In this document: positions 31,021-64,000 of the stretch, piece by piece
Layout of the letters: each line of letters starts with the position of its first letter
How positions within the stretch are numbered: position 1 is the first letter of the stretch
Assembly (NCBI GenBank): GCA_041661405.1
Contig: JBAZUL010000005.1
Coordinates: 3,164 to 67,163, forward strand
Reading direction: 5' to 3'
DNA: 64,000 bases
Source: Patescibacteria group bacterium
Lineage (GTDB): Bacteria; Patescibacteriota; Patescibacteriia; Patescibacteriales; JBAZCA01
Program-made: the position numbers and the translations under genes
Notes under the pieces: generated by a model
Seen by the model: the letters and a program-made list of their open reading frames with translations, nothing else
Database searches by the model: none
Told to the model about the DNA's origin: nothing

Positions 31021-31021
31021 G

Positions 31022-32173: not shown

Positions 32174-32219
32174 CAATGGCGGGCGTGGCTGACTTTCTTT
32201 CTTTGAGCTAAAATTAACT

Positions 32220-33180: not shown

Positions 33181-33189
33181 TGTATTTAC

Positions 33190-33220: not shown

Positions 33221-33265
33221 CTGCGTTGTAATTGGAATATATTATAAATAAAATATAACAATCTG

Positions 33266-44420: not shown

Positions 44421-44439
44421 ATTGCCTAACTGCAATATT

Positions 44440-45873: not shown

Positions 45874-45899
45874 GCCATGAACGCGGAGCGACAATCACC

Positions 45900-46502: not shown

Positions 46503-46503
46503 T

Positions 46504-47544: not shown

Positions 47545-48341
47545 ATACAACCTACCGAAAAACCAAAACGATTTTAGATAAAATCTGCGATAACAAAGTT
47601 TTGGAAGTGGAAAAAAGGATGAACGCGGACACCCTTGAGGTTCTTAAAGAAAAAATTAAAACTAATGGTTTTGAAAAACGGGATTTTTACGCGGCGCTTG
47701 CCAATCCCGGCCTTTCGCTGATTGCTGAAATTAAATTTTCCTCCCCTTCGGCCGAAGGCCGGATTTTTAGCTCCGTTAAACCGGAAGAAATAGTAAAAAC
47801 TTACGAAAAACACGGAGCCAGGGCAATATCCGTTTTAACCGATGAAAAATTTTTTCTTGGCAAGCTTGAATTTATTTCCCGGGTCAGGGCGGCCTGCAAC
47901 CTGCCGATTCTAAGGAAAGATTTTATCATTCATCCTTACCAGCTTTACGAGGCCAAAGCTTGCGGCGCCGACGCGGTTCTTTTGATAGCCTCAATCCTGG
48001 AAAAAGCGCGATTAAAGGAACTATATAGTCTGGCCGGCGAATTAGGATTGGATGTATTAATGGAAATCCATGACGCGCATGAACTTAAAACAGCTCTGGA
48101 ACGCGCCCCAAAAATAATCGGCATCAATAACCGGGATTTAAAAACCATGAAAATAGATTTAAATACATTTTCCCGATTATCAAAGCTTATTCCGGCGAAC
48201 ATAATCAAAGTCGCTGAATCCGGAATTAAAACCCGCGAAAACGCTGAACAAATGAGAAAATCCGGAGCCGATGCCATCCTTGTCGGCGCAACGCTCATGC
48301 AAGCGAAAGACATCGGAAAAATGATTGACACGCTAATATGA
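47541..48341 (+). CDS. trpC: indole-3-glycerol phosphate synthase
   Basis: 266 aa. IAEIKFSSPS, ISVLTDEKFF.G, LRKDFI and INNRDL.T motifs. It overlaps trpD by 4 nt. Confidence 0.9.
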   Translation: MNTTYRKTKTILDKICDNKVLEVEKRMNADTLEVLKEKIKTNGFEKRDFYAALANPGLSLIAEIKFSSPSAEGRIFSSVKPEEIVKTYEKHGARAISVLTDEKFFLGKLEFISRVRAACNLPILRKDFIIHPYQLYEAKACGADAVLLIASILEKARLKELYSLAGELGLDVLMEIHDAHELKTALERAPKIIGINNRDLKTMKIDLNTFSRLSKLIPANIIKVAESGIKTRENAEQMRKSGADAILVGATLMQAKDIGKMIDTLI

Positions 48342-49075
48342 AAATCAAGTTCTGCGGAATAACCAATATAGAAGACGCGAAAAACGCCATTAATCTGGGT
48401 GCTGATTATCTTGGGTTTATTATTGATTTTCCTCAAAGCCCGAGAAGCATAACCCTAGAACAGTTTATGGCATTATCCGCAAAAGTACAAAATTGCGACT
48501 CTGGAATACTGTCTGAGGCTAACCAGATTCCAAATTCCCAGCCTCGCCGGCAGGCAGGCAAATTCCAAATTCCAAAAATCGTTGCCGTCACTGTCGACAT
48601 GGCTGAAAACAAACTAAATAAATTTCTTGACTCTAACCTGATAGACATTCTCCAGTTTCATGGCAATGAAACCCCGGAATTATGCGGACGTTTTAAAAAC
48701 AGGGCGGAAGTTTGGCGATTATTTAAAATCAGTCCTGACGATAATTTAGAAAAAACTATATCGGATCTTAAAAGATTTAAAGGAAAAATTGACCGGTTTT
48801 TAATTGACTCCGCGAGCGCTGACGATAAAGCCAAAGGCGCGGCTAAAAAATTTGATAATTTTTCCCTGTTCAAAAATTTTGAACAGGCGGGTTATCCTCT
48901 TGTACTCGCTGGCGGAATCAACCCGGATAATGTAAAATTATATATAGAAAAATTAAACCCGGAAATAATTGATGTTGCGAGCGGAATTGAAGATCGCCCG
49001 GGGAAAAAAAGTTTAAAAAAAATGAAAGAATTAATTAAAATAGTAAATAAATACAACCGTAAAAAAGCTAATTAA
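48338..49075 (+). CDS. trpF: phosphoribosylanthranilate isomerase carrying an in-frame insertion of about 29 aa
   Basis: MKIKFCGIT, GADYLGFI...SPR, LQFHGNE, LAGGINPDNV and DVASGIE are present. The insert QNCDSGILSEANQIPNSQPRRQAGKFQIP (48488-48574) has no counterpart in canonical PRAI as I recall it. Confidence 0.85.
   Translation: MKIKFCGITNIEDAKNAINLGADYLGFIIDFPQSPRSITLEQFMALSAKVQNCDSGILSEANQIPNSQPRRQAGKFQIPKIVAVTVDMAENKLNKFLDSNLIDILQFHGNETPELCGRFKNRAEVWRLFKISPDDNLEKTISDLKRFKGKIDRFLIDSASADDKAKGAAKKFDNFSLFKNFEQAGYPLVLAGGINPDNVKLYIEKLNPEIIDVASGIEDRPGKKSLKKMKELIKIVNKYNRKKAN
48488..48574. repeat. word-array plus GC-hairpin repeat element inserted in-frame in trpF
   Basis: ATTCCAAATTCC (48527-48538) and AATTCCAAATTCC (48561-48573) flank GCCTCGCCggcaGGCAGGC. 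The motif GGCAGGCAA(A/T)TTCCAA(A)TTCC also occurs at 21929-21948 in the rplU leader. Confidence 0.7.
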
Positions 49076-49101
49076 AAATCCGCGTTATTCGCGTCATTAT
49101 T

Positions 49102-50349
49102 ATGAACATCTTTATTAAAACCAAATACGATGCCGACCGGACCGGGCATTTCGGCCGGCTGGGCGGACGCTACGTTCCGGAAATGCTCATTCCCGCTTTG
49201 GAAGAACTGGAAAAAGCTTATGAGGATGCTAAGCGCGATCCGAGGTTTTTAGCCGATCTCATGGATCTTTATGAGAATTACGATGGCCGACCCACTCCGC
49301 TCTATTTCGCCGCGAACCTTACCAAGCGTTTGGGCGGGGCAAAAATTTTCATAAAAAACGAAGGACAGAATCTGACCGGCGCCCATAAAATAAATCACTC
49401 TCTCGGCCAGGCCCTGCTCGCGAAACGGATGGGTAAAAAACGCCTTATTGCCGAGACCGGAGCCGGACAGCACGGCCTCGCCACCGCGACCGTCGCCGCC
49501 AAATTCGGCTTAAAATGCGCGGTTTACATGGGCAAAGTGGACTATCACCGCCAGCGGCCGAATGTTTTTTGGATGGAGCAGTTAGGCGCTGAAGTTATTC
49601 CGGTTCTGCACGGCACGCAAAGATTAAAAGACGCGGTAACCGCGACGCTCCAGGACTGGATAGAAAATGTGGATGACACTTACTATTTGCTCGGCTCGGC
49701 TTTGGGTCCTCACCCCTACCCTTCCATGGTCCGGGATTTCCAGACCATTGTAGGACTGGAAGTAAAGAAACAGCTGAAAGAAAACTATAACATAAAAAAA
49801 CCGGATTACATTGTCGCCTGCGTCGGCGGCGGATCCAACGCCATCGGCATATTTAATCCTTATCTGGACGACAAAGATGTTAAACTCATCGGCGTAGAAG
49901 CCGGCGGCCGGGGCATAAAAAATGTCGGCGATCACGCAACGCGCTTGCAAAAAAACCAAAAGCTCGGCGTGGTTGAAGGCTATAAGTCATTTTTTATCCA
50001 GGACGAAGACGGCCAGATCCAGAATACCCATAGCATTTCCGCCGGACTGGATTACTCCGGAATCGGCCCGGAACACGGCCTCCTTTATTTAAAAGGCCGG
50101 GTTGAATACAAATACGCCACTGACAAAGAAGTTATCGCCACTTTTAAACTGCTCGCCCGGACCGAAGGCATAATTCCCGCCCTGGAATCGGCTCACGCCG
50201 CCGCTTACGCGATAAAACTCGCCCCCAAGCTCAGTAAAAATAAAACCGTTGTCATAAACCTTTCCGGCCGCGGCGACAAGGATATTTTTATCGTGGCCGA
50301 AGCCTTGGGCGACAAAAAATGGAAAGAATATTTAAAAAGTAAAATATGA
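49102..50349 (+). CDS. trpB: tryptophan synthase beta chain
   Basis: 415 aa. GRLGGRYVPE, NLTGAHKINH (PLP Lys), ETGAGQHG and GGGSNAIG. Confidence 0.95.
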   Translation: MNIFIKTKYDADRTGHFGRLGGRYVPEMLIPALEELEKAYEDAKRDPRFLADLMDLYENYDGRPTPLYFAANLTKRLGGAKIFIKNEGQNLTGAHKINHSLGQALLAKRMGKKRLIAETGAGQHGLATATVAAKFGLKCAVYMGKVDYHRQRPNVFWMEQLGAEVIPVLHGTQRLKDAVTATLQDWIENVDDTYYLLGSALGPHPYPSMVRDFQTIVGLEVKKQLKENYNIKKPDYIVACVGGGSNAIGIFNPYLDDKDVKLIGVEAGGRGIKNVGDHATRLQKNQKLGVVEGYKSFFIQDEDGQIQNTHSISAGLDYSGIGPEHGLLYLKGRVEYKYATDKEVIATFKLLARTEGIIPALESAHAAAYAIKLAPKLSKNKTVVINLSGRGDKDIFIVAEALGDKKWKEYLKSKI

Positions 50350-51146
50350 ACAAAATCAATTCACAACTCAATAAAATTAAACGTGAAAATCGTCTTGGCC
50401 TAATGACCCACATCGTCATCGGCTATCCGAGTCTTAAAGAAAGCCTTGGACTTGCCAAGCTCATGGCTCGTTTGGGTGTTGATTTTATTGAACTTCAGCT
50501 TCCCTTTTCCGACCCCATGGCTGACGGCCCGACAATCATGGCCGCCAATAAGGCCGCGCTGGATAATGGCACGAAAGTAAAAGACTGTTTTAAAGTCATG
50601 AAAGAGTTGTCGCGCCAAGTTGATATTCCCCTGATTTTTATGGGTTATTTTAATACTGTCCATAGCTACGGCGCGGAAAAATTCTGCTGCGACGCGCGAC
50701 AGGCCGGAGCGAGCGGCCTTATTTTTCCCGACATTCCATTAGAAGAAGAAAAAGAAGAGCACTTTATTAAGAGCGCAAAAATGAACAATCTAATTCCCAT
50801 CCGCCTCCTTTCTCCGGCTTCCACTCCTCTGCGAATGAAAAAAAACGCCGAAGTAGCCGACGGCTTCCTTTACTTTGTCGGCCGCAAAGGCACGACTGGC
50901 GCTAAAGCCAGACTGGACAGCGAACTTAATTTTCATCTCAAAAAATTAAAAAAATACTTCAATATTCCGATCGCGGTCGGATTCGGCATTTCCAAACCCG
51001 AACACATCCGCGCTTTAAAAGGCCGCGCGGAAATTGCCGTAATCGGTTCGGCCTGCTTAAACGCCTACGATTCGTCGCCCAAAGGACAGGGGCTAAAGGC
51101 AATGGAAAAATTTTTAAAACCCCTTATCCGAGAAGCTGGAAAATAA
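50346..51146 (+). CDS. trpA: tryptophan synthase alpha chain
   Basis: 266 aa. IELQLPFSDPMADGPTI and the GFGIS motif. It overlaps trpB by 4 nt. Confidence 0.95.
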   Translation: MNKINSQLNKIKRENRLGLMTHIVIGYPSLKESLGLAKLMARLGVDFIELQLPFSDPMADGPTIMAANKAALDNGTKVKDCFKVMKELSRQVDIPLIFMGYFNTVHSYGAEKFCCDARQAGASGLIFPDIPLEEEKEEHFIKSAKMNNLIPIRLLSPASTPLRMKKNAEVADGFLYFVGRKGTTGAKARLDSELNFHLKKLKKYFNIPIAVGFGISKPEHIRALKGRAEIAVIGSACLNAYDSSPKGQGLKAMEKFLKPLIREAGK

Positions 51147-51189
51147 TAAGAAGCCGGGCGCTCCTAGTCTTATTTTCGCAAAATTAATC

Positions 51190-51234
51190 ATGGGACAAGC
51201 GGATTTTACGAATAACGCATCCATCTTGTCCCAT
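51190..51234. terminator. 10-bp perfect hairpin between trpA and the convergent sORF pair
   Basis: ATGGGACAAG (51190-51199) pairs with CTTGTCCCAT (51225-51234) over a 25-nt loop. The flanks are weakly T-rich, so its function is uncertain. Confidence 0.4.
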
Positions 51235-51246
51235 ATACGATGAGGC

Positions 51247-51390
51247 TCATGTCTGGACAGTCTGTCCGGTTTTTGCCTCGTTAACGTTTTGAGTCCGGTC
51301 TCCGCTTTGGCAGAAAAGGCATTCGCCTTTTACCGCTTTCGGAAGTCCGGGATTCCCCACGAAATATGTGTAAGCTTTATCTTTTTTCAT
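51247..51390 (-). CDS. small ORF E2 (47 aa) with a CLFC motif
   Basis: Own call gives MKKDKAYTYFVGNPGLPKAVKGECLFCQSGDRTQNVNEAKTGQTVQT. The SD and start read GGAGGAAGATAATG. Its start overlaps the end of E1 by 14 nt. Confidence 0.45.
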   Translation of the reverse strand: MKKDKAYTYFVGNPGLPKAVKGECLFCQSGDRTQNVNEAKTGQTVQT

Positions 51391-51580
51391 TATCTTCCTC
51401 CGTAAGCTGTCGGGCGGCCACGGCATAAGCCTGATCCGCCCGTCTAGCGCTAGCATAATGCCAGTTGCCATTTTCATCTTTCACCCGGACATTCTGTCCG
51501 GGTTCTGGCGACCAATATACTTCAATCGGGTCGCCTTTCATGCTCACCGAATACCAATCCTTTTCATATCTGTCTCTCAT
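51377..51580 (-). CDS. small ORF E1 (67 aa from the second ATG)
   Basis: MRDRYEKDWYSVSMKGDPIEVYWSPEPGQNVRVKDENGNWHY... The second ATG is preferred because GGAGGGCGAGATG provides an SD. The ORF is GC-rich and contains several 6-7 bp perfect palindromes. Confidence 0.5.
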   Translation of the reverse strand: MRDRYEKDWYSVSMKGDPIEVYWSPEPGQNVRVKDENGNWHYASARRADQAYAVAARQLTEEDNEKR

Positions 51581-51707
51581 CTCGCCCTCCATATTTCTTC
51601 GGCGCCGCCTGGCTCCGGTAAATCGGAACTTTCGCGGACAACCGATTTAGTATATAACGAAAAAATAAAAAATATTTTACATACGCTCTCAACCATAACG
51701 CGGCAAC

Positions 51708-51744
51708 AAAAAACCGTCTCAATTATTCTGAGACGATTTTTTTT
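51708..51744. terminator. bidirectional rho-independent terminator after ridA
   Basis: CGTCTC (51715-51720) pairs with GAGACG (51731-51736), flanked by an A-run (51708-51713) and a T-run (51737-51744). Confidence 0.75.
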
Positions 51745-51776
51745 AATATATCCGCTGATTGTTTACCATCTGCAGG

Positions 51777-52172
51777 CTATCCGGACAAGCTCTGTTCCGC
51801 GATCTCGGCTACTGTTTCTATTTCAATCATAGCGCCTTTGGGAAGACCAGCGACCTGGATCGTAACCCGAGCCGGATAAGGCTCGGAAAAATATTCCCCG
51901 TAAATTTCGTTCGCTTTAGCAAAATCATTAAGGTCAATTAAGTACATAGTGGAACGAACCACGGCGCCAAAATCCAAACCAACTTCGGCCAAAATAGCTT
52001 TTATGTTTTCCAAAACCTGCCGGGCTTCGGCCTCAATTCCGCCGGAAACCATCTCGCCGTCCGGCCGCAAAGGAATCTGGCCGGAAATAAATAACAGGTT
52101 CCCGGTTCTTACAGCCTGGGAATAAGGGCCGATAGCTTTTGGAGCGTTTGATGTAGTAATTACTTGTTTCAT
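51777..52172 (-). CDS. ridA: RidA family reactive enamine/imine deaminase
   Basis: 131 aa. APKAIGPYSQAV, GQIP and ARV..QVA.LPKGA.IEIE match the YjgF/RidA pattern. Confidence 0.9.
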   Translation of the reverse strand: MKQVITTSNAPKAIGPYSQAVRTGNLLFISGQIPLRPDGEMVSGGIEAEARQVLENIKAILAEVGLDFGAVVRSTMYLIDLNDFAKANEIYGEYFSEPYPARVTIQVAGLPKGAMIEIETVAEIAEQSLSG

Positions 52173-52173
52173 A

Positions 52174-53223
52174 TTATTTCTGCCGCTCCGGCCTTAACGC
52201 TCTGACCGCCGCTCCGGCCTGCCACATCTCGGATTCGCGCATTTCTTTTAATTCATTATCCAGTTTTGCCCGGTAATCCGGATCGCTATTGGCTTTTAGA
52301 ACCACGTCGGTTTGTTCTCCGCTTTTTACCCGGGCGTACAAATCTTCAAAAACCGGCTCCACCGCCTTGCGGAATTCATGGCGCCAGTCCAGCGCGCCGC
52401 GCTGGGCGGTCGTTGAGCAGTTAGCGTACATCCAGTCCATGCCGTTTTCGGCGACTAACGGAATTAAGCTCTGGGTCGCTTCTTCAACTGTCTCGTTAAA
52501 AGCTTCACTCGGCGAATGACCCATCTTCCGCAAAAGGTTATATTGGGCTTCCATGATGCCGGCCAAAGCGCCCATTAAAACTCCGCGTTCGCCGGTTAAA
52601 TCGCTATAAACCTCCTTCTGGAAAGTGGTCGGAAACAGGAATCCGGAACCGACCGCGATTCCGAGAGCCTTTGCCCGGTCTTCAGCCTTGCCGGTCGCGT
52701 CCTGAAAAACCGCGTAGCTTGAGTTAAGCCCTTTGCCTGCGACGAAAAGGCGGCGGAGCGAAGTGCCCGATCCTTTAGGCGCGACTAAAATCACGTCCAC
52801 GTCGGACGGCGGGATTATTCCGGTCTTATCTTTATAAGTAATGCCGAAACCATGGGAAAAATATAAAGCTTTGCCTTTGGTTAAATGTTTTTTTACTGTC
52901 GGCCAAAGGGTAATCTGCCCGGCATCGGATAATAAATAGCAGATAATCGTTCCTTTTTCCAGCGCTTCTTCAATCTCAAATAAATCTTTGCCCGGCTTAA
53001 AACCGTCCGCTACAGCCTTGTCATAAGACGCCGAGGGTTTTCTTTGGCCGACAATTACGTTAATCCCGTTGTCCTTCAGGTTCAGAGACTGTCCGGGACC
53101 CTGCACCCCGTAGCCGATAACAGCCACCACCTCGTCTTTTAAAACTTCCCGCGCTTTTTCCAGAGGAAACTCTTCCCTGGTTACCACTTCCTCCATCACC
53201 CCTCCAAAATTTATTTGCGCCAT
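52174..53223 (-). CDS. ilvC: ketol-acid reductoisomerase (class I)
   Basis: 349 aa. VIGYGVQGPGQSLNLKDNG, the FSHGF motif and a C-terminal knotted-domain pattern. Confidence 0.95.
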   Translation of the reverse strand: MAQINFGGVMEEVVTREEFPLEKAREVLKDEVVAVIGYGVQGPGQSLNLKDNGINVIVGQRKPSASYDKAVADGFKPGKDLFEIEEALEKGTIICYLLSDAGQITLWPTVKKHLTKGKALYFSHGFGITYKDKTGIIPPSDVDVILVAPKGSGTSLRRLFVAGKGLNSSYAVFQDATGKAEDRAKALGIAVGSGFLFPTTFQKEVYSDLTGERGVLMGALAGIMEAQYNLLRKMGHSPSEAFNETVEEATQSLIPLVAENGMDWMYANCSTTAQRGALDWRHEFRKAVEPVFEDLYARVKSGEQTDVVLKANSDPDYRAKLDNELKEMRESEMWQAGAAVRALRPERQK

Positions 53224-53265
53224 AATTTTTAATCTTAATTGATTAAACTTTATAAAAAACTAATA

Positions 53266-54975
53266 TTATTTGCAAATCAACGTGTCCTTCAGAGCCTGTC
53301 CCGGCGGCACCATGGGAAAAACGTTCGCCTCGGGTTCAACCATAAATTCAAGAAATATTGAATCTTTGCTTAGAGCCGCTTTTTTAATCATCGGTTCAAC
53401 CTGATCCAGCCTGGCAATCCGGTAAGCTTCAATCCCGTAGCTCTCGGCGATTTTAACAAAATCCGGATTTTGAAGGGGCGTGCACATGTAGTTTTTCTTA
53501 AAAAACAGTTCTTGCCATTGCCTGACCATTCCTAAAAATCCGTTATTGACCATTATTATTTTAACCGGCAGTTTGTACTCCATTACCGCGCCGAGTTCCT
53601 GCATGTTCATCTGAAATCCGCCGTCGCCCATAATAGACCAAACCTGTTTTTCCGGCCTGGCGATTTGCGCCCCGACTGCCGCCGGAAGGCTATAGCCCAT
53701 GCACCCGAGTCCTCCGGAAGACAGAAACTGGCCGGGATAATTAAAATTAAAATAATGAGCCGTCCACATCTGGTTCTGGCCGACATCAGACACGACTATT
53801 GAATCTTTGGCCGCCTGCCGCGAAATCTCTTCAATCACTTCAAAAACGAACATGTGATTGGTTCTTTTCAGCCTGGCTTCGGTTTTTATCTTATCAAGGC
53901 AGGTTTTTTCTTCCATTTCGCAAATCTTGTCAATCCAGCCTTTTCTCCTTTCAGCGCCCGCTTTCCCGGCCGTCTTTGAATTTAACATCCTGATCGTATC
54001 TTTGCAATTACCCAGAAGCGCCGCGTCAGCCGGAACGTTTTTTCCGATTTCCCGCGGATCAATTTCCAGATGGATAATTTTCGCCCGCTTAGCGTAATGT
54101 TCAAGGTTGCCGGTTATCCGGTCGGAAAATCTCGTTCCGATAGCGATTATCAGGTCGGCGTTATGGACGGCTAAATTAGCGTAAGCCATGCCATGCATGC
54201 CCACCATGCCGAAATTTAACGGATGACTATCCGGCAAAACGGAAAGTCCGAGCAATGTCGTAACAAAAGGCAAATCGTTTGACTCAACGAATTCTTTAAA
54301 CTCCTCCGAAGCGCCGGATAAAATTATTCCGTGGCCGGCGATTACTACCGGCTTTTTTGACCCGTCAATAAGCGCCAGGGCTTTTTCCATTTCTTTATTA
54401 AAATCCTTCACGATCTTTTTATCCGCGCCGTCATCCGGAGCTGTTTTGTCGTCTTTAGGATAAACAAAATCTTTTACTTCAGCCTTAATTACGTCCACCG
54501 GCAAATCAATATGCACCGGCCGTGGCCGTCCGGATCGGGCGAGATAAAAGGCTTCCTTCACAATTCCCGGCAGGTCTTTCACGTCTTTGACAAAATAATT
54601 TTTTTTCGTGATCGGGCGGGTAACTTCGGTCATTTTTATTTCCTGAAAAGCGTCAGTGCCGTAAATTTTCGTTGAAACCTGCGCCGTAATCGCCACCATG
54701 CCGATTGAGTCCATGTAAGCGTTCGCTATGCCTGAGATAAGGTTGGTCGCGCCGGGTCCGGATGTGCTTAAACACACCCCTGGTTTTCCGGTAACGCGAA
54801 AATAAGCATCAGCCGCCATGGCCGCGCCCTGCTCGTTTCTCGGAAGGACATGCTTAATTTGCGGATAGCTGGATAACCGGTCATGGAGAGGGATAGTCAC
54901 TCCTCCCGGATAGCCGAAAATCACCTCCACCCCTTCCTCCAGTAATGACTTTATTAATATGTCAGCGCCGATCAT
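53266..54975 (-). CDS. ilvB: acetolactate synthase large subunit
   Basis: 569 aa ThDP enzyme. GADILIKSLLEEGV..IFGYPGG, GPGATN and GLGCMGYSLPAAVGA...GDGGFQMN. No ilvN-like small subunit lies adjacent. Confidence 0.9.
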   Translation of the reverse strand: MIGADILIKSLLEEGVEVIFGYPGGVTIPLHDRLSSYPQIKHVLPRNEQGAAMAADAYFRVTGKPGVCLSTSGPGATNLISGIANAYMDSIGMVAITAQVSTKIYGTDAFQEIKMTEVTRPITKKNYFVKDVKDLPGIVKEAFYLARSGRPRPVHIDLPVDVIKAEVKDFVYPKDDKTAPDDGADKKIVKDFNKEMEKALALIDGSKKPVVIAGHGIILSGASEEFKEFVESNDLPFVTTLLGLSVLPDSHPLNFGMVGMHGMAYANLAVHNADLIIAIGTRFSDRITGNLEHYAKRAKIIHLEIDPREIGKNVPADAALLGNCKDTIRMLNSKTAGKAGAERRKGWIDKICEMEEKTCLDKIKTEARLKRTNHMFVFEVIEEISRQAAKDSIVVSDVGQNQMWTAHYFNFNYPGQFLSSGGLGCMGYSLPAAVGAQIARPEKQVWSIMGDGGFQMNMQELGAVMEYKLPVKIIMVNNGFLGMVRQWQELFFKKNYMCTPLQNPDFVKIAESYGIEAYRIARLDQVEPMIKKAALSKDSIFLEFMVEPEANVFPMVPPGQALKDTLICK

Positions 54976-55032
54976 AAATTTCTCATAACTCGTAACGCGT
55001 AGCTCATAACAAATAAATTAACTTTCCGCGCT

Positions 55033-56652
55033 TTATCTATTATCAACCGCGTTTTTTCTATATGCCTCCAGCATCCTCGTCATCTTTCTCGCTGGGATCT
55101 TTACCGTTTTTAGTCTTTTCTTAATTTCGTTCTTTGATAATTTTACATTCAGCCTCCGTTTCGGGATATCAATCTCAATCATATCGCCGTCCCGGATTAC
55201 GCCGATTACGCCGCCGAGGTACGCTTCGGGTTCAATATGCCCGATGGCCGCTCCGCGGGTTCCGCCGGAAAATCTTCCGTCAGTTATCAGGGCGCATTTT
55301 AACCCGGCGCCGGTTATCGCCGCGGTCGGAGTAAGCATCTCGGGCATGCCCGGCGCGCCAGCCAGCCCCATGAAATTTATAACAATCACATCGTTGTTTT
55401 TTATTTTTTTATCGCGCACGGCTTTTAACACCGCTTCTTCGTTATCAAACACCTTGGCCGGTCCGGTTATTTTCATCATGTCCGGCTCCACGGCTGTTTG
55501 TTTAACCACTGACGAGCGCGCCAAATTGCCTTTTAAAACCGCGATCCCGCCTTCTTTATAAAAAGGATTACTAAGCGGCCTTATCACTTTATCGTTTTTC
55601 ACTTTAGCCGACTTGGCAATCTGCTTAATTTTTTTTCCATTAATAGTCTTGGCTTCCAGTAAATATTTTTCCAAACGATTTAACACCGCCGGAATGCCTC
55701 CGGCCTTATCTAGTTCTTCCATAACATAAGGCCCAGCCGGCCGGATATGGCAGATATTAGAGGTTGTCCGCGCCAAATCGTCAAATACATGGAGCGGTAA
55801 ATCTATTCCGCATTCTTTGGCAATGGCCGGTAAATGCAAGGCCGTATTGGTTGAACCGCCGATGGCCATATCCACCCGCACGGCGTTTAAAAAGGCGTTT
55901 TTCGTCATGATGTCTTTTGGCCGGACATTCTTTTTCACCAGTTCCACGATTCGCCTGCCAGTCGCGTAAGCCTGTTTTTTCTTTTTAGGATCCACGGCTA
56001 AGGTCGTAGCGCATCCGGTTACGCTCATTCCAAGCACTTCGGTCATGGCCGCCATGGAATTGGCGGTAAAAAGCCCGGCGCAGGATCCGGCTCCGGGGCA
56101 GGAATTACATTCTATTTCCATGGCGTCTTTTTTCGTCAATTTTCCGGCTTCGTATTGCCCGACCGCTTCAAAATCGGAAATTACATCCATTTTTTTTCCG
56201 TTCACAATGCCGGCTTTCATCGGACCGCCGGTTAAAATCGCCGTTGGCAGGTTCAGCCGCCCGGCCGCCATAAGCATGCCCGGCGTTATCTTATCGCAAT
56301 TCGTCACTCCAACCCAGCCGTCCAAAGAATGGGACAGGGCCATGATTTCAATATTATCGGCAATATGTTCCCGGCTCGGCAGGCTAAGGCGCATTTCAAC
56401 ATACATGGCAATGCCGTCGCAGACTCCCGGCACGCCCCATTCAAAAGGAACGCCTCCGGCAGAGCGAATACCCCGCTTCACTTCTTCAGCCAGTTCGCGC
56501 AAATGGATATGCCCGGGAATTATGTCATTAAAAGAGTTAGCCACGCCGATAAAAGGCTTTTTAAAATCTTCGCCTTTTAACCCGCTCGCCCGGAGCAAAG
56601 CCCGGTGCGGCATGGTAGCGATACCTGTTTTTAGTTTTTGCGATGGAAGCAT
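55033..56652 (-). CDS. ilvD: dihydroxy-acid dehydratase
   Basis: 539 aa. [25 protein letters not shown] and SPEA-like motifs. Confidence 0.95.
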
Positions 56653-56656
56653 AATT

Positions 56657-57556
56657 TTATACGTAAGTTAACCACTTTTTATATTTATCATTTTCCCCCG
56701 ACACAATCCGCATAAATTTTTCATTCAGTTTCGCGGTTATCGACCCCATTTTCCCGTCGGCAATCCGGCAATCATTTATTGATCCGATCGGCGTTACTTC
56801 GGCCGCCGTGCCGGTAAAAAAGCACTCATCGGCTGACAAAGCTTCGTCCATGGTAATTGTTTTTTCTTCGGTTTCATATCCAAGCTCCCTGGCCAGTTCA
56901 ATAATGGATTTTCTCGTAATCCCGGCGAGGATTGTCCCGAGTTTGGGCGTAATTAGTTTTCCATCTTTTACCAGGAAAAAATTTTCTCCCGGCCCTTCGG
57001 CGATATTTCCGTTAAAATCCAGAAGCAAAGCCTCGTCATAGCCTTCGCCGTTGACCTGTAAAAAAGACAGGATGGAATTGACGTAATGGCCGCAGATTTT
57101 CGCGTCAGCCACGGACGATTGCGGATGGATCCGGATATAATCGGCTACTTTCACTTTTATCGGATCAGCGCTTAAATATTTGCCCCAAGGCCAGGCGGCG
57201 ATAATCCCTTCCACCGGACAGCCTAACGGGCTGATGCGCAGTTCGCCATAACCGTAATAAATTAGCGGCCGGATGTAGCCTTGCTTTAATCCGTTGATTT
57301 TTACGGTTTCAATTATCGCGTTTTTAAACTCTTCTTTAGTCCACGGCATTTTCATTTTTATGGCGTTAGCCGAATAGTAAAGCCGGTCAATATGCTCGTC
57401 CAGGCGGAAAATAGCCCCGCCCCGCGAAGCCTCGTAAACGCGGATGCCTTCAAAAACTCCGGAGCCGTAATGGAGCGAGTGGGACAGGACGTGGACTTTA
57501 ACGTCCTCCCAGAGCTTCATCTCCCCGTTTTGCCAGATGTATTTAGTCGTTTGCAT
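56657..57556 (-). CDS. ilvE: branched-chain amino acid aminotransferase
   Basis: Start at [13 protein letters not shown]...[14 protein letters not shown] (57556). The track start at 57667 overlaps the upstream gene by 110 nt. Fold-type IV motifs EGPGENFF and GITR are present. Confidence 0.9.
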
Positions 57557-57557
57557 A

Positions 57558-59408
57558 TCATTTTCTCTTATTACACAAAATATTATATCCCCGCTCAAAC
57601 GCCTCAATTGACGCGACGATGATATCCGGCGAGGTGGCGGTGGCGATGACTTTATTTTCAAATTCATCTTTTAAATTCATGGTTACCTCAACCGACGCGT
57701 CAGTTCCCTTGCGGTCAATTTTCACGTCATAATCAATGAGCCAGTAATTCGGCAGTTTTTCGCTCTTTATCACTTCCCGCGCGGCTTTCATTATCGCGTC
57801 CACCGGACCGACGCCTAAAGTTTTCGCTTTGCAGATATGTTTTTCGTTAATCCTGACGCAAACTTCAGCCTCGGCCTTACCGGATTTGGAAGTCGTCACC
57901 TTAAAATCTTCCACTTTAATAATTTTCTTCGCGCCCGGGTCGGTCTTTAAGATGGCTTCTATGACATGCTGTAAATCCGATTTCCGCATCTTGTCTTCTT
58001 TCTTAAAAAAATTCTCCACTTCTTCCTGGATGGCTTCCAAATATTTTTTCGTCAAATCAACTCCGAATTTTTCTTTTACTGTTTTATTGGTCTGTTTCAG
58101 ATTCGGCATTCTAGCGAATAGCACTTCTGTTTTATCTTTTTCCGCCGAAGCCTGGATTTTATAAAGCTTCATTTTCAGATAACGGTCAACTTCCGAAAGC
58201 TTCGGCTCTATGGATGGCGGCGAAGGCAAGATTCGGAGCATAGTCAAAGGATCTTTTAAGCCATGCCCCGTAAGCGAGCATACCACGACATCATTCTCCT
58301 TTATCCGGCGCTCGTTAACCATCTTTTTTAAGGCCGCCAAAGGCAGGGCTGAAGACGGCTCAACAAAAATGGATTCTTCGCCCGCGAGCTCTTTTTCCGC
58401 TTCAAGAATCTCTTCATCGGAAATTTCCAAAGCCATTCCTTTGGTTTCATAAATCGCTTTTAATACTTTTACGCCGTCAAAGGGATTATTTACCGCTACG
58501 GCCGAAGCTATCGTATTAAGTTTAGTTAAGGGCGTGATGTCTTTTTTTCCTTTTTTAAACGCCTCCACCACGGCGTTAGATCCCCGGGGCTGGACAGCTA
58601 TCACCTTAGGCAGTTTATCAATTAATCCGAGATTGTAGTATTCTTTCATGCCTTTGTAAATCGCCGCCAGGTTGGTTCCGACTCCGACCGGACCGATTAA
58701 ATAGTCCGGAGCGTTCCAGTTTAACTGCTCTACTATTTCATATCCTTGGGATTTTTGCCCTTCGGCCCGAAAGGCGTAATCACCGGCCAGATAAAAACCA
58801 TATTTTCTCGCGATCTCTTCCGCCAATTTAGCGCAAATACTGTAAGGCGCCCGGACCTGAATCATTCTCGCGCCATACGCCAGAGTCTGAGTCAATTTCC
58901 CCAAAGGCGTTCCTTCGGGGATAACAATATAGGCCGGCAAACCCGCCTGAGCCGCGTAGGCGGAAACCGAAGCCGCCATATTCCCGGTTGAGGCGACAAC
59001 AATCGCTTTGGCTCCGATTTCAAGCGCCTTGGTTATTTCAACCATGGTGCCGCGATCTTTAAAAACTCCGGTCGGGTTGGTGGTCTCGTCTTTAAAATAA
59101 ATATTTTTAATTCCGAGCTTTTTGGCGATTCTTTTTGATTTTTTCAGCGGCGTTCCTCCCTCGTTCAGGCTCACCAGCTTGCTTAAATCAAGAATAGGGT
59201 AAAAATTCAGGTATTTGGTCGCGGAAATCGGCGCGCTTCTCAGGTTATATAAATTAAGCCGGGCTCCGATAAATTTCCAGTCATAAGAAACATCCAAAGG
59301 ACCGCCGCACTTAAGACAGGTCGTGGATGTTTCTTTTTCATCCCAAACCGCGCCGCATTTTACGCATTTCAGCTGGTAGAATTTATTGTTGTTAGCGCTG
59401 GCTTTCAT
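57558..59408 (-). CDS. ThrC-family PLP enzyme (N-terminal Zn-ribbon) fused to a C-terminal LeuA_dimer-type allosteric domain
   Basis: 616 aa. CVKCG...CLKCGG ribbon, FKDETTNPTGVFKDRG (PLP Lys) and ASTGNMAAS. After about residue 400 comes a linker, then AEAEVCVRI...TLGVGPVDAIMKAAREV...LIDYDVKI..KGTDASVEVTM...SPDIIVASIEAFERGYN, which aligns with 31022..31435 and with the LeuA/CimA C-terminus at 62751. Confidence 0.8.
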   Translation of the reverse strand: MKASANNNKFYQLKCVKCGAVWDEKETSTTCLKCGGPLDVSYDWKFIGARLNLYNLRSAPISATKYLNFYPILDLSKLVSLNEGGTPLKKSKRIAKKLGIKNIYFKDETTNPTGVFKDRGTMVEITKALEIGAKAIVVASTGNMAASVSAYAAQAGLPAYIVIPEGTPLGKLTQTLAYGARMIQVRAPYSICAKLAEEIARKYGFYLAGDYAFRAEGQKSQGYEIVEQLNWNAPDYLIGPVGVGTNLAAIYKGMKEYYNLGLIDKLPKVIAVQPRGSNAVVEAFKKGKKDITPLTKLNTIASAVAVNNPFDGVKVLKAIYETKGMALEISDEEILEAEKELAGEESIFVEPSSALPLAALKKMVNERRIKENDVVVCSLTGHGLKDPLTMLRILPSPPSIEPKLSEVDRYLKMKLYKIQASAEKDKTEVLFARMPNLKQTNKTVKEKFGVDLTKKYLEAIQEEVENFFKKEDKMRKSDLQHVIEAILKTDPGAKKIIKVEDFKVTTSKSGKAEAEVCVRINEKHICKAKTLGVGPVDAIMKAAREVIKSEKLPNYWLIDYDVKIDRKGTDASVEVTMNLKDEFENKVIATATSPDIIVASIEAFERGYNILCNKRK

Positions 59409-59442
59409 AAAAATGGCTGTTAGTTTTTAATTTATCCCTTCT

Positions 59443-59470
59443 ATAAAAAATACCACCTATGTTGGTGGCA
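59443..59470 (-). terminator. attenuator terminator of the Ile/Leu/Val leader
   Basis: The minus strand reads GCCACCaacataGGTGGT followed by ATTTTTTAT. Upstream GTGGCAGTTT can pair with AAACTGCCAC (10 bp) to sequester the 5' arm. Confidence 0.6.
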
Positions 59471-59504
59471 GTTTTTTCTTTTTTGTTCAATCGTGAAACT
59501 GCCA

Positions 59505-59570
59505 CTAGGTGGGTATAATCAAGCTTACTACTACTACAATATCCAGAATTTTTGGCAGTTTTTCGGTCAT
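59505..59570 (-). CDS. Ile/Leu/Val-rich leader peptide (21 aa)
   Basis: Own translation gives MTEKLPKILDIVVVVSLIIPT. Ten of twelve consecutive codons are Ile, Leu or Val. It is below the ORF-track cutoff. Confidence 0.7.
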   Translation of the reverse strand: MTEKLPKILDIVVVVSLIIPT

Positions 59571-59576
59571 GTGTAT

Positions 59577-59605
59577 ATTCTAAATCTTTCCCATAAAGGT
59601 GTCAA
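59577..59605 (-). promoter_or_regulatory. sigma70-like promoter for the ILV leader (leaderless geometry)
   Basis: On the minus strand, TTGACA (59605-59600), a 17-nt spacer and TAGAAT (59582-59577). The leader ATG is 6 nt downstream. Confidence 0.55.
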
Positions 59606-59640
59606 GGGATCCGTCCGCTGGAAATGGTCCGGACAGCGAT

Positions 59641-60798
59641 TCATATCCCGGCCAATATTTTTTCTCCCATCGCGCGGGTTCCGAGGAGTTTTTTCGGATT
59701 ATCCCCGGCCGAAAATAAATCCCCGGTTCGGTAGCCCTTGACAAGGGTTTGTTCCACCGCCTTTTCAATGGCTTTTGCCCCTTTTTTGGCGCCGATATGG
59801 CGAAGCATTAACGCTCCGGTCAAAATCCGACCTAAGGGATTGGCCTTGTCTTTGCCCGCGAGAGTCGGCGCTGTCCCGGCTCCGGATTCAAACATGGCCG
59901 CTTGCGTTTCCGGGTTAACGGCCGAAGAGCACATTAACCCCATGCTCCCGAGCGCCGCGGCCGCCCCGTCGGATAATATGTCGCCGTGCTCGTTGCCGCA
60001 GGCAATCACTCCGCTTAATTTCGCCGGAGTAAAAAGCATGGAGTTGGCCGAATCCACCAATTGATGAATCAGTTTGACATCGGGAAATTCATCAGCGCCG
60101 ATTTTAGTTACAATTTTCCTCCATAAATCATAACGGGCCATGACATTGGCCTTATCCACGGAGATGAGCGGCAATTTTAATTCCCGGGCGTAATTAAAAC
60201 AGGCGCGGATATATTTTTCCACCGTGGATTTCCTGTAATAAGCCATGTCAACGATAATCTCGTCATCCGAAGAAACATCCTGCTTTAATTTTAAGCCGAT
60301 TTTATTTTTTATCTCTTCCGGAATTTCATGCCTTAAATCAAGATTGCCAAAATAGCTGTCTTCAAGAAGAAACCTGACCCAAAATTGAGTTACGCCTTCT
60401 TCGGGAATATTTTCCGGCTTTACCATTGAAAGATAATCCAGGGATTTGTAATAAATCATCGGCCGGAAATTTAAGAGGAGTCCCATTTCTTTTCTTAAAG
60501 TTAAAAGCGCCCGGGCTTCAGGCATCATTTCCGGTTTTTCTTTGCCAATAGTTTTGTCAAATTTCGGGTCGCCGACTCCGCCGAAAAAAATCGTCCCGAT
60601 TTCCACGGCCTTTTTAAAAGACTCTTCAGGCATTGTATCGCCGAATTCCTCATAAGCGTTCCAGCCCATGGGAGTTTTTATAAATTCAATTTCCAGGTTG
60701 TCCAGTTTCGCCGCCGCGATAACAATCCGGCAGGCTTCGGCCATCATCTCCGGACCGGCGCCATCGCCGGGAACAAGAGCGATTATTTTTTTTGTCAT
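59641..60798 (-). CDS. leuB: 3-isopropylmalate dehydrogenase
   Basis: 385 aa. IALVPGDGAGPEM, the NxxGDILSD-like GNEHGDILSD, and the family layout. Confidence 0.95.
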   Translation of the reverse strand: MTKKIIALVPGDGAGPEMMAEACRIVIAAAKLDNLEIEFIKTPMGWNAYEEFGDTMPEESFKKAVEIGTIFFGGVGDPKFDKTIGKEKPEMMPEARALLTLRKEMGLLLNFRPMIYYKSLDYLSMVKPENIPEEGVTQFWVRFLLEDSYFGNLDLRHEIPEEIKNKIGLKLKQDVSSDDEIIVDMAYYRKSTVEKYIRACFNYARELKLPLISVDKANVMARYDLWRKIVTKIGADEFPDVKLIHQLVDSANSMLFTPAKLSGVIACGNEHGDILSDGAAAALGSMGLMCSSAVNPETQAAMFESGAGTAPTLAGKDKANPLGRILTGALMLRHIGAKKGAKAIEKAVEQTLVKGYRTGDLFSAGDNPKKLLGTRAMGEKILAGI

Positions 60799-62726
60799 AA
60801 TATTTCCGTTGCCAGCCGGAGCATCACTCCGGTACTGCCGTTGTTCTTAATTAGCTCTTTTTGATGTTCTGACAACTTAAAACCGTATTCTTTCCCGCCA
60901 TTGCTTTTAACTATTCCATTCTTCCAATCCGCTTCCAGACGATCCGGTCTGGCTTTAAACAGTTCGTCAATTTCTTCCGGTTTAAGCTCAACGCATAAAA
61001 GGCCGTTGTTAAACATGTTTTCGTAAAAAATCCGGGCGAAAGAAGGGGCGAGGACGCATTTTATGCCGGCTGATTCAAGCGCCCAGGGCGCGTGCTCCCG
61101 GCTTGACCCGCAACCGAAGTTTTCGCCGGCGACGATGATTCGTGATTCAAATATTTTTTTTCTTTCCTCGGCGGGTATTGACGCGTCTTCAAGGCAATGT
61201 TTCGCGAGTTCCGCCTTGTCGGTTTCAGTTAAATAACGCGCCGGGATGATCTGGTCGGTATCAACGTTCTTTTCCGGTAAATAAAAAACCGCTCCCGAAA
61301 AAATGGACTCTTTCCCGCTGATAGCGGCTTTGAGTAAAATCCCGTAATCCGGCAGCCTATATTTTTTTTCTTTCCAGCCGGTTAATGACATGGGCTTATT
61401 TTCAGCGTTCAGAGAATCTATAAACTCTTTCACTTTTTTCCCCAGCTCCAAATCCGGTTCAGTTATCTCGCCGCGCGCAGCCGCGAGCGCCGCGGTAAGG
61501 GGCGAAGCTAAATGAACCATTCCGCCTTTTCCCATCCGGCCGGGAAAATTCCGGTTGGTCGTAGAAACGCAAACCTCGCCGGGAGCGATAACGCCATTGC
61601 TCATTCCGAGGCAGGCGCCGCAGGTCGGAGCGGAAACAAGACAGCCGGCTTCCAGAAAAATTTCAACCAGCCCTTCGCGCGCGGCTTTGGCGTAAATATG
61701 CTGGCTGGCTGGCACGATAATACAGCGGACATTCTCATGAACGCCTTTCGCTAAAATTTTAAAAACTCCGGCCGCGATCCTTAAATCTTCTATCCGGCCG
61801 TTGGTGCAGGAGCCGATATAGACCTGATCTATCTTTTTACCCGAAAGTTTTTTTACGCTCACCACGTCTTCGGGCGAATAATTATCAGTAATCGCCGGTG
61901 TCAGTTTCTGCGCGTCAATCTCAATCACCCGATCATATTCAGCTCCCTTGTCGCTGTTCCATTTTTTTAGGTCATTTAAAGCCTCTTCTTTTGAACTATG
62001 ATTTTTTTCCAGCGCCGGCCAAAGATATTCAACGGTTTTTTCGTCAATGGGCATCATACCCGAACTGGCTCCGGCTTCAACCGCCATGTTTGATATTGTC
62101 ATCCGGCCTTCCATGCTCATATTTTTAATTGCCGCTCCGCCGAATTCCAAAACCGCGTTAGCCGCCCCTTTAACTCCGATTTCTTTTATGAGATATAAAA
62201 CTAAGTCTTTAGCAAAAACGTTGATTGATAGTTCTCCGTTAAAATTCACCCGAATGACTTTTTGCGGAGGGCAAACCCATAAGCCGGTTACGAGCGCGTT
62301 TTCCAGATCAGTCGTCCCGACCCCGGCGGTAAAAGCGCCGAAAGCGCCGTGGGTTGAAGTATGCGAGTCGCCCATGATGCCAATTTGGCCCGGCCGAATC
62401 CAGCCTTTTTCTGGAATAACAGCGTGGCAAATCCCGTTCCGACCGACTTCTAAAAATTCAATGCCCATCTCCCGCGCCCAGTCTCTTATAATTTTCGCTT
62501 GTATGGCCGAAGCCGTATCCTTTGCCGGATTAACATGGTCAACCATAAGCTTAATCCGGTTGGGATTAAAAACCGAATTAATGCCGCGGGCTTTCATGTC
62601 CAGAATCGCGTTCGGGGTGGTAATTTCATGCCCCCAAACCCAGTCCAAAGCTAAAACCAGCCTGCCGCCTGGCAGAATTTTTTTTGCATGAGCGTCAATA
62701 ATTTTTTGATAAGCGGTTTTTGACAT
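60795..62726 (-). CDS. leuCD: fused 3-isopropylmalate dehydratase large+small subunits (LeuC-LeuD single polypeptide)
   Basis: The aconitase-type domain carries Cys ligands ([16 protein letters not shown]), then a linker, then a swivel domain with [13 protein letters not shown]. The ATG at 62726 ([11 protein letters not shown]) is preferred over the TTG at 62747. Confidence 0.9.
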
Positions 62727-62750
62727 ATTTAATGCGCCAAACGCCAAAGC

Positions 62751-64000
62751 CTATAAACTAGCCAGGTACCAGCTAAGACAATTAGCAAAAGCCTGAGCCG
62801 AAGCCTGATTAGTGTCAATATGCACGGCCCGGCCGGAAAACGTGCGGTTCGCGTCATCATTAATTCTGATCCGGCCGTAAACATCGGCCAAAGCGTCCGA
62901 CCCGGAGCTAACCGCCACCGGCCGCCAGTCGTCAAGATCTATCTTAACATCTTTTAAGCGGGGATAAAAATCTTCGGCCGCCCGGACGACCGAGCGCATG
63001 ATAGCGTCAAAAGGTCCGACCCCGACCGAAGCGCTAATCCCTTCTTTGCCGCCGATTTCAACGATAACGGTCGCGGTCGGAAGCGTCCCTTCTCCGCCAA
63101 TAGCCTGACAGCGCTTAATTTTAATCGGAAACGGAATCACGTCAATAGTTTCGTGGACAATCGCCGCCAATTCCCGATCCGAGAGAGGTTTGCCGGCCAT
63201 GGCCTCGGAAATTTTTGTTGATTGTTCGTAGGTCTTTTGCAGTTCGTCTTTCCCCAGCGCGTAGCCCATCTCTTCTAATCTTTTCCTGAGCCCTTCGCGG
63301 CCGGACGACTGGTTGATTACGGTTTCCACGTTTTTATGCCCGTAAATTTCCGGGCGCCAGCTGTAATAAGCGCTGTCCATTCCCTGTTCGCGGGCCCGGG
63401 CTTCAATGGCCTGATGGGTGCCGGACGAACAGATAGAATTTTGCGAGCCAATTACGACCCAATGCCGCGGAACAGTCATACCGACGGCGTTGGCGGTGAA
63501 ATTAACGATTTTAACGCAAAGCTCCGGCTTAAAATCAATCTTAAAATTTTTAAAAACATCCTGCCTGGTATTCAGGTTCATAATCACAGCTTCAAATTTT
63601 GTCATGCCCGAACGTTCGCCCAAGCCGAAGAATGTCCCTTCAATTATGTCCGCGCCGTTTACGATTGCCGCGAGGGCGTTATGCGTAGAGTGATCAGAAT
63701 CATTATGGCAATGCACGGAGATAAGGGCATTTTTCCGGTTAGAAACATTTTTTTCTATGTCCGCAATTAAATCCCCGAATTCCGAACCAACGCGCAGTCC
63801 GGTCGTGTCCGGAATATTTACGACATCCGCTCCGGCATTAATCACGGCTTCTACCAGGCGGAATAAAAATTTCCGACTGGTCCGTCCCGCGTCTTCGGGC
63901 GAATATTCCACGCTCTTAAAACCGAGGCTCTTGGCGTAGCGAACCATGGCCGTCGCCTGATCAATGGTCCAGTTTTGTTTTCCTTCGGTCGTATCGCCAT
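62751..64000 (-). CDS. 2-isopropylmalate synthase / citramalate synthase family enzyme (5' end beyond the window)
   Basis: HCHNDSDHSTHNALAAIVNGADIIEGTFFGLGERSGMT (DRE-TIM metal site) and a C-terminal LeuA_dimer domain (VGVGPFDAIMRSV...). The frame stays open to position 64000. Confidence 0.85.
   Translation of the reverse strand, partial: GDTTEGKQNWTIDQATAMVRYAKSLGFKSVEYSPEDAGRTSRKFLFRLVEAVINAGADVVNIPDTTGLRVGSEFGDLIADIEKNVSNRKNALISVHCHNDSDHSTHNALAAIVNGADIIEGTFFGLGERSGMTKFEAVIMNLNTRQDVFKNFKIDFKPELCVKIVNFTANAVGMTVPRHWVVIGSQNSICSSGTHQAIEARAREQGMDSAYYSWRPEIYGHKNVETVINQSSGREGLRKRLEEMGYALGKDELQKTYEQSTKISEAMAGKPLSDRELAAIVHETIDVIPFPIKIKRCQAIGGEGTLPTATVIVEIGGKEGISASVGVGPFDAIMRSVVRAAEDFYPRLKDVKIDLDDWRPVAVSSGSDALADVYGRIRINDDANRTFSGRAVHIDTNQASAQAFANCLSWYLASL

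Follow-up and report, generated by a model that had tools for sequence, protein, structure and literature searches.

A threonine synthase-derived enzyme fused to a LeuA-type regulatory domain at the head of a Patescibacteria ilv operon: a candidate replacement for IlvA

The fusion and its closest described systems

Class-II (short) threonine synthases (TS; EC 4.2.3.1) are enzymes dependent on pyridoxal 5'-phosphate (PLP) with several known structures (PDB accession codes: 1UIM and 1V7C from T. thermophilus, 2ZSJ from A. aeolicus, 2D1F from M. tuberculosis, 6CGQ from B. subtilis). The threonine dehydratase IlvA (EC 4.3.1.19) is encoded at the head of an ilv operon, is feedback-regulated, and has its product handled by RidA. 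The synthases CimA and LeuA carry a C-terminal linker and regulatory domain behind a DRE-TIM (HMGL-like) aldolase-type catalytic domain. The gene considered here combines parts of all these systems. It lies at 57558..59408 on the minus strand of a 64,000-nucleotide stretch of DNA from a Patescibacteria group bacterium (GenBank assembly GCA_041661405.1, contig JBAZUL010000005.1); this whole stretch is called the window. The gene encodes a protein of 616 residues with a zinc ribbon, a ThrC-derived PLP domain, a helical linker and a LeuA_dimer domain. We consider this fusion to be probably a biosynthetic threonine dehydratase (threonine ammonia-lyase), inhibited by isoleucine, whose ancestor was a class-II threonine synthase and which replaces IlvA non-orthologously.

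The layout of the fusion follows from its open reading frame (ORF) and its Pfam matches. The zinc ribbon, read from the sequence, occupies residues 11-42 (59283..59378) with C15, C18, C31 and C34 in a CxxC-12-CxxC arrangement. The fold-type II, ThrC-like catalytic domain spans residues 79-381 (58266..59174; Pfam PALP, E 3.9e-77), and its PLP lysine K117 (codon 59058-59060) aligns to K61 of 1UIM. Residues 382-475 (57984..58265) form the linker, which the AlphaFold2 (AF2) model predicts as helices with a predicted local distance difference test score (pLDDT) mostly of 66-92 and which is conserved throughout the fusion family. The regulatory domain takes up residues 476-610 (57579..57983; Pfam E 1.5e-22) and scores 80.3 bits with PF08502 (LeuA_dimer) against a gathering cut-off of 24.9; it contains the GVGPVDA loop (residues 532-538, 57795-57815), invariant in the fusion family. 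The AF2 model as a whole has a pLDDT of 85.3 and a predicted template modelling score (pTM) of 0.78, and the beta-beta-beta-alpha repeats of the regulatory domain are predicted with high pLDDT. A preliminary description of the locus had proposed a zinc-ribbon ThrC-type enzyme fused to LeuA_dimer, and the ORF, Pfam and NCBIfam results bear this out.

The fusion shares its fold and PLP lysine with the class-II threonine synthases. These are the closest PDB matches of the AF2 model in a Foldseek search, with 36-40% identity over the catalytic domain, and the alignments to 2ZSJ, 1UIM and 2D1F have E values of 1.8e-71 to 2.6e-64. What sets the fusion family apart from these enzymes is a set of changes at T88, N154, S155, V156, N157, N188, A189, G190, R242 and S248, the addition of a 230-residue LeuA-type linker and regulatory domain, and a genomic context of ilv and ridA genes where canonical ThrC has hom and thrB. 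The N-terminal zinc ribbon is common to the fusion and archaeal zinc-ribbon ThrC. It is absent from several family members (P0124, P0126, P0134, P0137) and from a 567-residue form in Balneolaceae; we therefore reject the zinc ribbon as the defining novelty.

With IlvA the fusion is alike in its proposed reaction and pathway position, while as proteins the two share the PLP fold-type II superfamily and are not homologues at the family level. The IlvA and TdcB structures in the PDB show superfamily-level similarity (E 1e-12 to 1e-13), and the fusion scores far below the cut-offs of the NCBIfam IlvA models (109 against 379 for TIGR01127, 95 against 411 for TIGR01124). Where IlvA has the ACT-like Thr_dehydrat_C module, the fusion has LeuA_dimer; a Pfam scan of the fusion finds no match to PF00585 (Thr_dehydrat_C). 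With CimA and LeuA the relation is reversed, because homology extends over the linker and the regulatory domain, with the GxGPxDA and SPD...AS motifs conserved, while the catalytic domain of the fusion is a PLP enzyme. Pfam detects no HMGL-like catalytic TIM barrel in the fusion, and LeuA models align to the linker and regulatory part only, with residues 443-614 (the linker from about 443 onward) matching positions 336-502 of NF002085.

The release of 2-oxobutanoate on a ThrC scaffold has been described for B. subtilis and Microcystis aeruginosa, and supports isoleucine synthesis in vivo when the enzyme is over-expressed. Canonical class-II ThrC has a weak threonine dehydratase activity that rescues B. 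subtilis ilvA mutants once thrC is derepressed (bioRxiv 10.64898/2026.09.15.751699), and the Microcystis enzyme converts threonine to 2-ketobutyrate in vitro (PMC12172450). By analogy, these precedents show that dehydratase chemistry should be accessible to the ThrC scaffold of the fusion. In B. subtilis and Microcystis, however, it is a side activity of an enzyme that lacks LeuA_dimer and whose active site is canonical, whereas the fusion belongs to a distinct ancient clade with a rebuilt pocket, a regulatory domain dedicated to it and an ilv/ridA context. A paper on M. marburgensis used a heterologous IlvA and not a ThrC-derived route; deletion of cimA there, with the organism's own thrC present, gives isoleucine auxotrophy. 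Other methanogen ThrC proteins among our control loci (described below) carry the canonical signature. The preliminary description knew of no earlier account of the architecture, and our full-text literature search agrees, as it found no paper on the pairing of PALP with LeuA_dimer; broader searching returned only work on moonlighting ThrC. The proposed reaction and regulatory logic are known ones; the catalytic lineage and the domain pairing are new.

Active site, family and regulatory domain

We now consider the catalytic pocket, using the residue numbers of T. thermophilus TS (K61, T88, N154 and so on). The family comparison rests on an alignment of the window protein to 120 relatives. The PLP lysine K61 and R160 are retained in 120/120 of these relatives, and the family also keeps the EGQK motif. 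Around them the pocket differs from that of the canonical enzymes. Position 88, in the ASTGN(T to M) loop, is methionine in 120/120 (M144 of the fusion, codon 58977..58979). The segment N154-S155-V156-N157...R160 becomes G209-D210-Y211...R214 (58767..58784), with one residue deleted and the Arg kept, and all four residues (G, D, Y and R) occur in 120/120. The glycine-rich loop N188-A189-G190-N191 becomes V243-G244-T245-N246 (58671..58682), where cysteine or valine stands at position 188 in 110/120 and the G-T at 189-190, in place of the canonical A-G, is again seen in 120/120. Finally, R242 is mostly replaced by A, and S248 by D. The complete family signature, present in all 120, is M88, G154, D155, Y156, the deletion of N157, G189, T190 and D248, and the family representatives repeat the same pattern.

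Are these positions free to vary in threonine synthases generally? In the enzymes of T. thermophilus, Aquifex and M. tuberculosis, K61, T85, N87, T88, N154, S155, N157, R160, N188 and R242 are essentially fixed, and the rare variants are G190C and R242K. As a wider control we use the 80 genome loci of a scan in which ordinary ThrC predominated owing to the generic NPTGxFKDR motif. Fifty-five of the 80 are canonical; they span bacteria and archaea, including the zinc-ribbon enzymes of Methanobacterium, Methanoculleus, Methanoperedens, Thermococcus and Bathyarchaeia, and all 55 keep T88, N-S-[VIL]-N...R and N188, with rare variants at 189, 190 and 242 only. The signature of the fusion family occurs in four of the 80 (Rhodohalobacter, two ANME/uncultured archaea and one Aenigmatarchaeote). 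Because residues that are invariant in canonical ThrC are replaced family-wide, the PLP domain of the fusion is, as judged from its alignment, a ThrC derivative and not a canonical threonine synthase. This agrees with the repurposed threonine synthase scaffold proposed in the preliminary description.

The control loci also contain a second divergent ThrC-like group, which departs from canonical TS with a fixed signature of its own: L88, N154-N155, R157, Y160, S188-G-S/A and D248. It is found in Acidimicrobiia, Nitrospirota, Dormibacterota and some archaea (loci L018, L029, L035, L036, L038-L043, L047, L051-L053, L055, L059 and L070).

In a neighbour-joining tree, the sequences with the fusion signature form one clade of 44, within which the fused proteins are a sub-clade of 27, so the signature is monophyletic. 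The clade holds fused members and unfused ones of about 350-440 residues. This division, into fused and regulated forms on one side and unfused forms accompanied by RidA on the other, mirrors that between IlvA and the catabolic TdcB-TdcF pair. The architecture of PALP plus LeuA_dimer is not rare, as hundreds of database clusters carry it. Each of the 120 listed best matches to the window protein has either the whole fusion or its PLP part, and another 120 clusters gather around the Balneolaceae form. The family occurs in Patescibacteria, in NC10 and in cultured Balneolaceae (Rhodohalobacter sp. 8-1 and SW132, Fodinibius sp. AD559). Database entries name its members 'threonine synthase', 'PLP-dependent enzyme' or 'pyridoxal-phosphate dependent enzyme', and the identical protein in public metagenome-assembled genomes (P0001) is entered as 'threonine synthase [Patescibacteria group bacterium]'.

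The genomic neighbourhood of the family is also distinctive. In Gracilibacteria and other contigs of the candidate phyla radiation (CPR), the fusion heads ilv operons with gene orders such as fusion-ilvE-ilvB-ilvN, fusion-...-ilvE-ilvD-ilvB-ilvN-ilvC-ridA and fusion-ilvE-ilvC-ilvB. A scan of metagenome contigs targeted at the signature gives 80 loci, 63 of them demonstrably fused and 69 with usable flanks. Among these 69, ilv or leu genes are present at 38, ilvE lies directly downstream at 24, and RidA is found at 18, at 15 of which it is adjacent on the same strand; a second IlvA-like PALP ORF is found at none of the 69. At the canonical ThrC loci, in contrast, RidA occurs at 0/55 and ilv or leu genes at 6/55, despite a larger average locus size. 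RidA hydrolyses the enamine and imine products of PLP dehydratases, and threonine synthase releases no enamine product. The link to RidA extends beyond ilv operons, since two-gene cassettes of ridA and a family gene occur where there are no ilv genes. Two unfused members (P0132 and P0129) form tight cassettes of this kind, and for three unfused archaeal members (L032, L033, L057) the genomic context gives no functional hint.

Upstream of the family genes, the leader peptides are dominated by isoleucine (MKKLVLNIIVVIIIIL, MKLFAYIFVVIIIL, MVQLIIVVIIIL, MRKSIQIISIIINTRS and others), with runs such as NIIVVIIIIL, IFVVIIIL, LIIVVIIIL, IISIII and IIINIII. In several independent lineages the gene heads an ilv operon behind an Ile/Val-rich leader. 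Because such Ile-dominated leaders recur, the first gene that follows them can be argued to be isoleucine-specific. More generally, CPR contigs often have classical leader-peptide attenuators with a terminator and Ile/Val runs upstream of the family gene (L003, L006, L091-L135), and some of the leaders are purely Ile-rich (MRKSIQIISIIINTRS, MHSNQIIINIIIRHHRG).

We turn to the regulatory domain. As a profile, the fused domain matches 3F6G and 3F6H in the PDB at E 2.7e-13 over profile residues 65-182, and no other LeuA or CimA chain is found at E < 0.01 in this search. These two entries belong to the regulatory domain of citramalate synthase from Leptospira, a domain that reportedly binds isoleucine. 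Within the family G532, V533, G534, D537, P594 and D595 are invariant, as are the GVGPVDA loop and the SPD...AS motif. The profile also gives a borderline match to the anti-CRISPR protein AcrIIA4 (E 0.008, about 60 residues), which is probably chance or a generic beta-alpha fold resemblance.

The window holds three LeuA_dimer copies, as the preliminary description had noted: in the fusion, in a free-standing ORF of 137 residues (31022-31435) and in the LeuA-like gene from 62751 onward. The fused domain is about 30% identical to the other two, and all pairwise identities fall at 27-31%; with copies so different we reject recent copying within the genome. The free ORF, on the minus strand 62 bp upstream of a canonical thrC, scores 146 bits against the C-terminus of the TIGR00977 citramalate synthase model, and the C-termini of TIGR00977 citramalate synthases are its nearest relatives (50-60% identity). 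We considered whether it is the tail of a broken cimA and rejected this, since neither the ORFs nor a tblastn search of 31300-33400 reveals HMGL-like remnants, and the gene is likewise free-standing in contig L171 (88% identity). The free protein may be a trans-acting regulatory subunit or the relic of a lost cimA.

Operon, attenuator and neighbouring genes

The leu genes and the operon of the fusion are all on the minus strand, in the order leuA-like, fused leuCD, leuB, a gap of 232 bp, fusion, ilvE, ilvD, ilvB, ilvC and ridA. According to Pfam and NCBIfam, ilvE (56657-57556) starts one nucleotide past the stop codon of the fusion and is followed by ilvD (55033-56652), ilvB (53266-54975), ilvC (52174-53223) and ridA (51777-52172). 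This downstream part (51777..57556) is also found in the gene calls of an overlapping contig (L087). As the preliminary description stated, the operon ends in RidA, and the 64-kb window contains no IlvA-type gene; apart from the fusion, the PALP proteins encoded there are TrpB, CysK and a canonical ThrC. That thrC, of class I (29676-30959, minus strand; Thr_synth_N, PALP and THR4_C), scores 261 with TIGR00260 against a cut-off of 167. Because it lies in the same window, threonine synthesis is already covered.

The gap upstream of the fusion holds a promoter and a putative leader-peptide attenuator (59441..59605, minus strand). The -35 and -10 elements read TTGACA-17-TAGAAT (59605-59577), with 11/12 consensus positions. 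The leader ORF MTEKLPKILDIVVVVSLIIPT (59570-59505) has 21 codons, 11 of them for Ile, Leu or Val. Four segments can be assigned to the attenuator: segment 1 AAACTGCCA (59561-59553), segment 2 TGGCAGTTT (59504-59496), segment 3 AAACTGCCACC (59474-59464) and segment 4 GGTGG (59457-59453), the last followed by a T-run. The repeated AAACTGCCA and TGGCAGTTT segments permit alternative 1:2, 2:3 and 3:4 pairings, and the terminator hairpin consists of seven pairs and the T-run. The fold z-score of the predicted attenuator is only -1.5. From its sequence features, the region is an attenuator of the ilv/leu leader-peptide type, and the promoter, the leader with its 11 Ile/Leu/Val codons and the terminator hairpin confirm the preliminary claim that the fusion is the first gene behind such an element. 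A riboswitch or T-box in its place is rejected, as there is no Rfam match in 51000-64000.

On the far side of the gap lie leuB (59641-60798), leuCD (60795-62747; a 650-residue fusion of Aconitase and Aconitase_C) and the leuA-like gene (62751-64000, continuing beyond the window). The last is not truncated, as might be thought from its position at the window edge, since it is complete in L087 (5057-6658, 533 residues). In several related contigs leuC and leuD are separate genes, while they are fused in the window. No ilvN is found between ilvB and ilvC (53223-53266); an ACT-type ilvN is present in two related operons (L003, L005).

Elsewhere in the window, an apparent threonine operon (28962-31435) has the free LeuA_dimer gene first, then thrC, then an AAA_33 kinase-like ORF with a weak match to the Desulfovibrio-type homoserine kinase model. 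Next to it, about 1.8 kb (31436-33266) have no convincing ORF, no HMGL-like remnants and no Rfam match at E < 0.2, an unusually long non-coding region for a compact genome. The region 24142-51146 is a dense block of amino-acid biosynthesis with a complete trp operon (44422-51146), tyrA/pheA-like and serA/serC/serB-like genes, cysK and thrC. CPR bacteria usually do without such pathways, and the block is atypical for a Patescibacteria genome.

Proposed mechanism, alternatives and significance

For the substrate, the product, the role of the Asp and the effector we infer the following scheme. The ThrC-type PLP domain would bind L-threonine as an external aldimine and eliminate its beta-hydroxyl. 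The 2-aminocrotonate released would tautomerise to 2-iminobutanoate, whose hydrolysis to 2-oxobutanoate and ammonia would be sped up by the RidA encoded at the operon end, and the 2-oxobutanoate would pass through IlvB, IlvC, IlvD and IlvE to isoleucine. In canonical TS a phosphate ion directs the reaction to the addition of water; in the fusion, the invariant Asp at position 155 is proposed to pair with Arg160 in place of that ion. The outcome would be net elimination, in a pocket that takes threonine in place of a phosphorylated substrate. The LeuA-type linker and LeuA_dimer would form a dimer and, in the manner of citramalate synthase, bind isoleucine, resulting in feedback inhibition. The Ile/Val/Leu leader-peptide attenuator would be a separate, transcriptional control.

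Concerning the substrate, T88, N154, S155, R160 and N188 of T. thermophilus TS reportedly hold the phosphate of O-phosphohomoserine and later the product phosphate ion, which steers the reaction to threonine. The preliminary description left threonine and O-phosphohomoserine both as candidates. The alignment speaks for threonine, and the loss of the phosphate-site residues together with the gain of an Asp speaks against O-phosphohomoserine. Taken for the family as a whole, we give roughly even chances to the broader proposal of a widespread, so far unrecognised replacement of IlvA, in which an Asp was built into the former phosphate pocket and isoleucine sensitivity was then gained by capture of the linker and regulatory domain of a citramalate or isopropylmalate synthase.

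What other activities could the fusion have? The alternative that survives best, which we nevertheless hold to be unlikely, is a different fold-type II elimination or replacement enzyme: an L-serine dehydratase that feeds pyruvate to acetolactate synthase, or a homoserine or O-acyl-homoserine enzyme, with LeuA_dimer sensing another amino acid. RidA also handles the 2-aminoacrylate formed from serine, many members lie outside ilv operons, and sequence alone does not reveal the substrate pocket. Yet the position of the gene, first behind Ile-dominated leaders and with ilvE as its immediate successor, indicates a step specific to isoleucine; pyruvate needs no dedicated supply enzyme; and the regulatory domain resembles that of Leptospira citramalate synthase, which reportedly binds isoleucine.

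Next, and about as doubtful, is an O-phosphohomoserine phospho-lyase, which would release aminocrotonate unhydrated and give 2-oxobutanoate, phosphate and ammonia, bypassing free threonine. A counterpart is THNSL2, a mammalian ThrC homologue that is reported to be such a phospho-lyase and to yield 2-oxobutanoate from O-phosphohomoserine without free threonine. Canonical TS, too, reportedly makes 2-ketobutyrate from O-phosphohomoserine as a side reaction, which counts for this alternative. The threonine synthase scaffold and the retained R160 would suit such an enzyme, and RidA and the ilv context fit it equally well, as the released enamine would be identical. What counts against it is the pocket: four of the five side chains reported as phosphate ligands are replaced by residues unable to donate hydrogen bonds, and the invariant negative charge of the Asp at 155 should disfavour the binding of a phosphate ester.

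Least likely of the three is a genuine threonine synthase with an allosteric domain, that is, a second, Ile- or Leu-regulated isozyme matching threonine supply to branched-chain demand (plant threonine synthase, by comparison, is activated by S-adenosylmethionine): the fusion does pass the cut-offs of the curated models TIGR00260 and NF006050, its top sequence and fold matches are threonine synthases and every database name says so, but residues invariant in every examined canonical ThrC are replaced across the family, the window already has a canonical thrC, the RidA linkage of the family is missing from the canonical loci, a synthase releases no enamine as its product, and without IlvA threonine would be unconnected to the co-transcribed ilv genes.

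Returning to the isoleucine-inhibited threonine dehydratase, several points weigh against it. The curated hidden Markov models TIGR00260 (248.8 against a cut-off of 167.1) and NF006050 (311.3 against 303) call the fusion a threonine synthase. About a third of the metagenomic family loci (26/69) have neither ilv/leu genes nor ridA nearby, and the copies in Methylomirabilis (NC10) and in Rhodohalobacter and other Balneolaceae stand alone. The differences between family and canonical ThrC loci have Fisher p values of 1e-5 for RidA and 2e-7 for ilv/leu, values that are indicative only, since the loci are related and their independence is overstated. The absence of ilvA covers the 64-kb window and about 680 kb of related loci. 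For T88, N154, S155, R160 and N188 the alignments themselves show invariance in the canonical enzymes and, R160 apart, replacement in the family; their role at the phosphate site is as reported for T. thermophilus TS. Finally, the leuA-like gene could be, or could double as, a citramalate synthase supplying 2-oxobutanoate: its 533-residue product, the only LeuA-family enzyme near the operon, falls far below every NCBIfam cut-off for either enzyme, with scores of 325 against 532 for LeuA and 123 against 450 for CimA.

If the fusion is the dehydratase that we propose, it would fill a gap in the isoleucine pathway, the lack of ilvA, in many genomes of Patescibacteria/CPR, NC10 and Balneolaceae. 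It would also correct a systematic misannotation as 'threonine synthase', and the calls of a missing ilvA together with two thrC genes would be annotation errors. Isoleucine biosynthesis would then have a third type of entry enzyme, in which catalytic and allosteric modules are combined in a new way, and the family would be a natural example of a PLP enzyme whose specificity was switched from hydration (synthase) to elimination (dehydratase). The LeuA_dimer module would be portable between unrelated catalytic folds, a property useful for engineered feedback control and biosensors. The cultured carriers Rhodohalobacter and Fodinibius would offer experimental access to the enzyme, and for the CPR bacteria themselves the locus would document classical leader-peptide attenuation.

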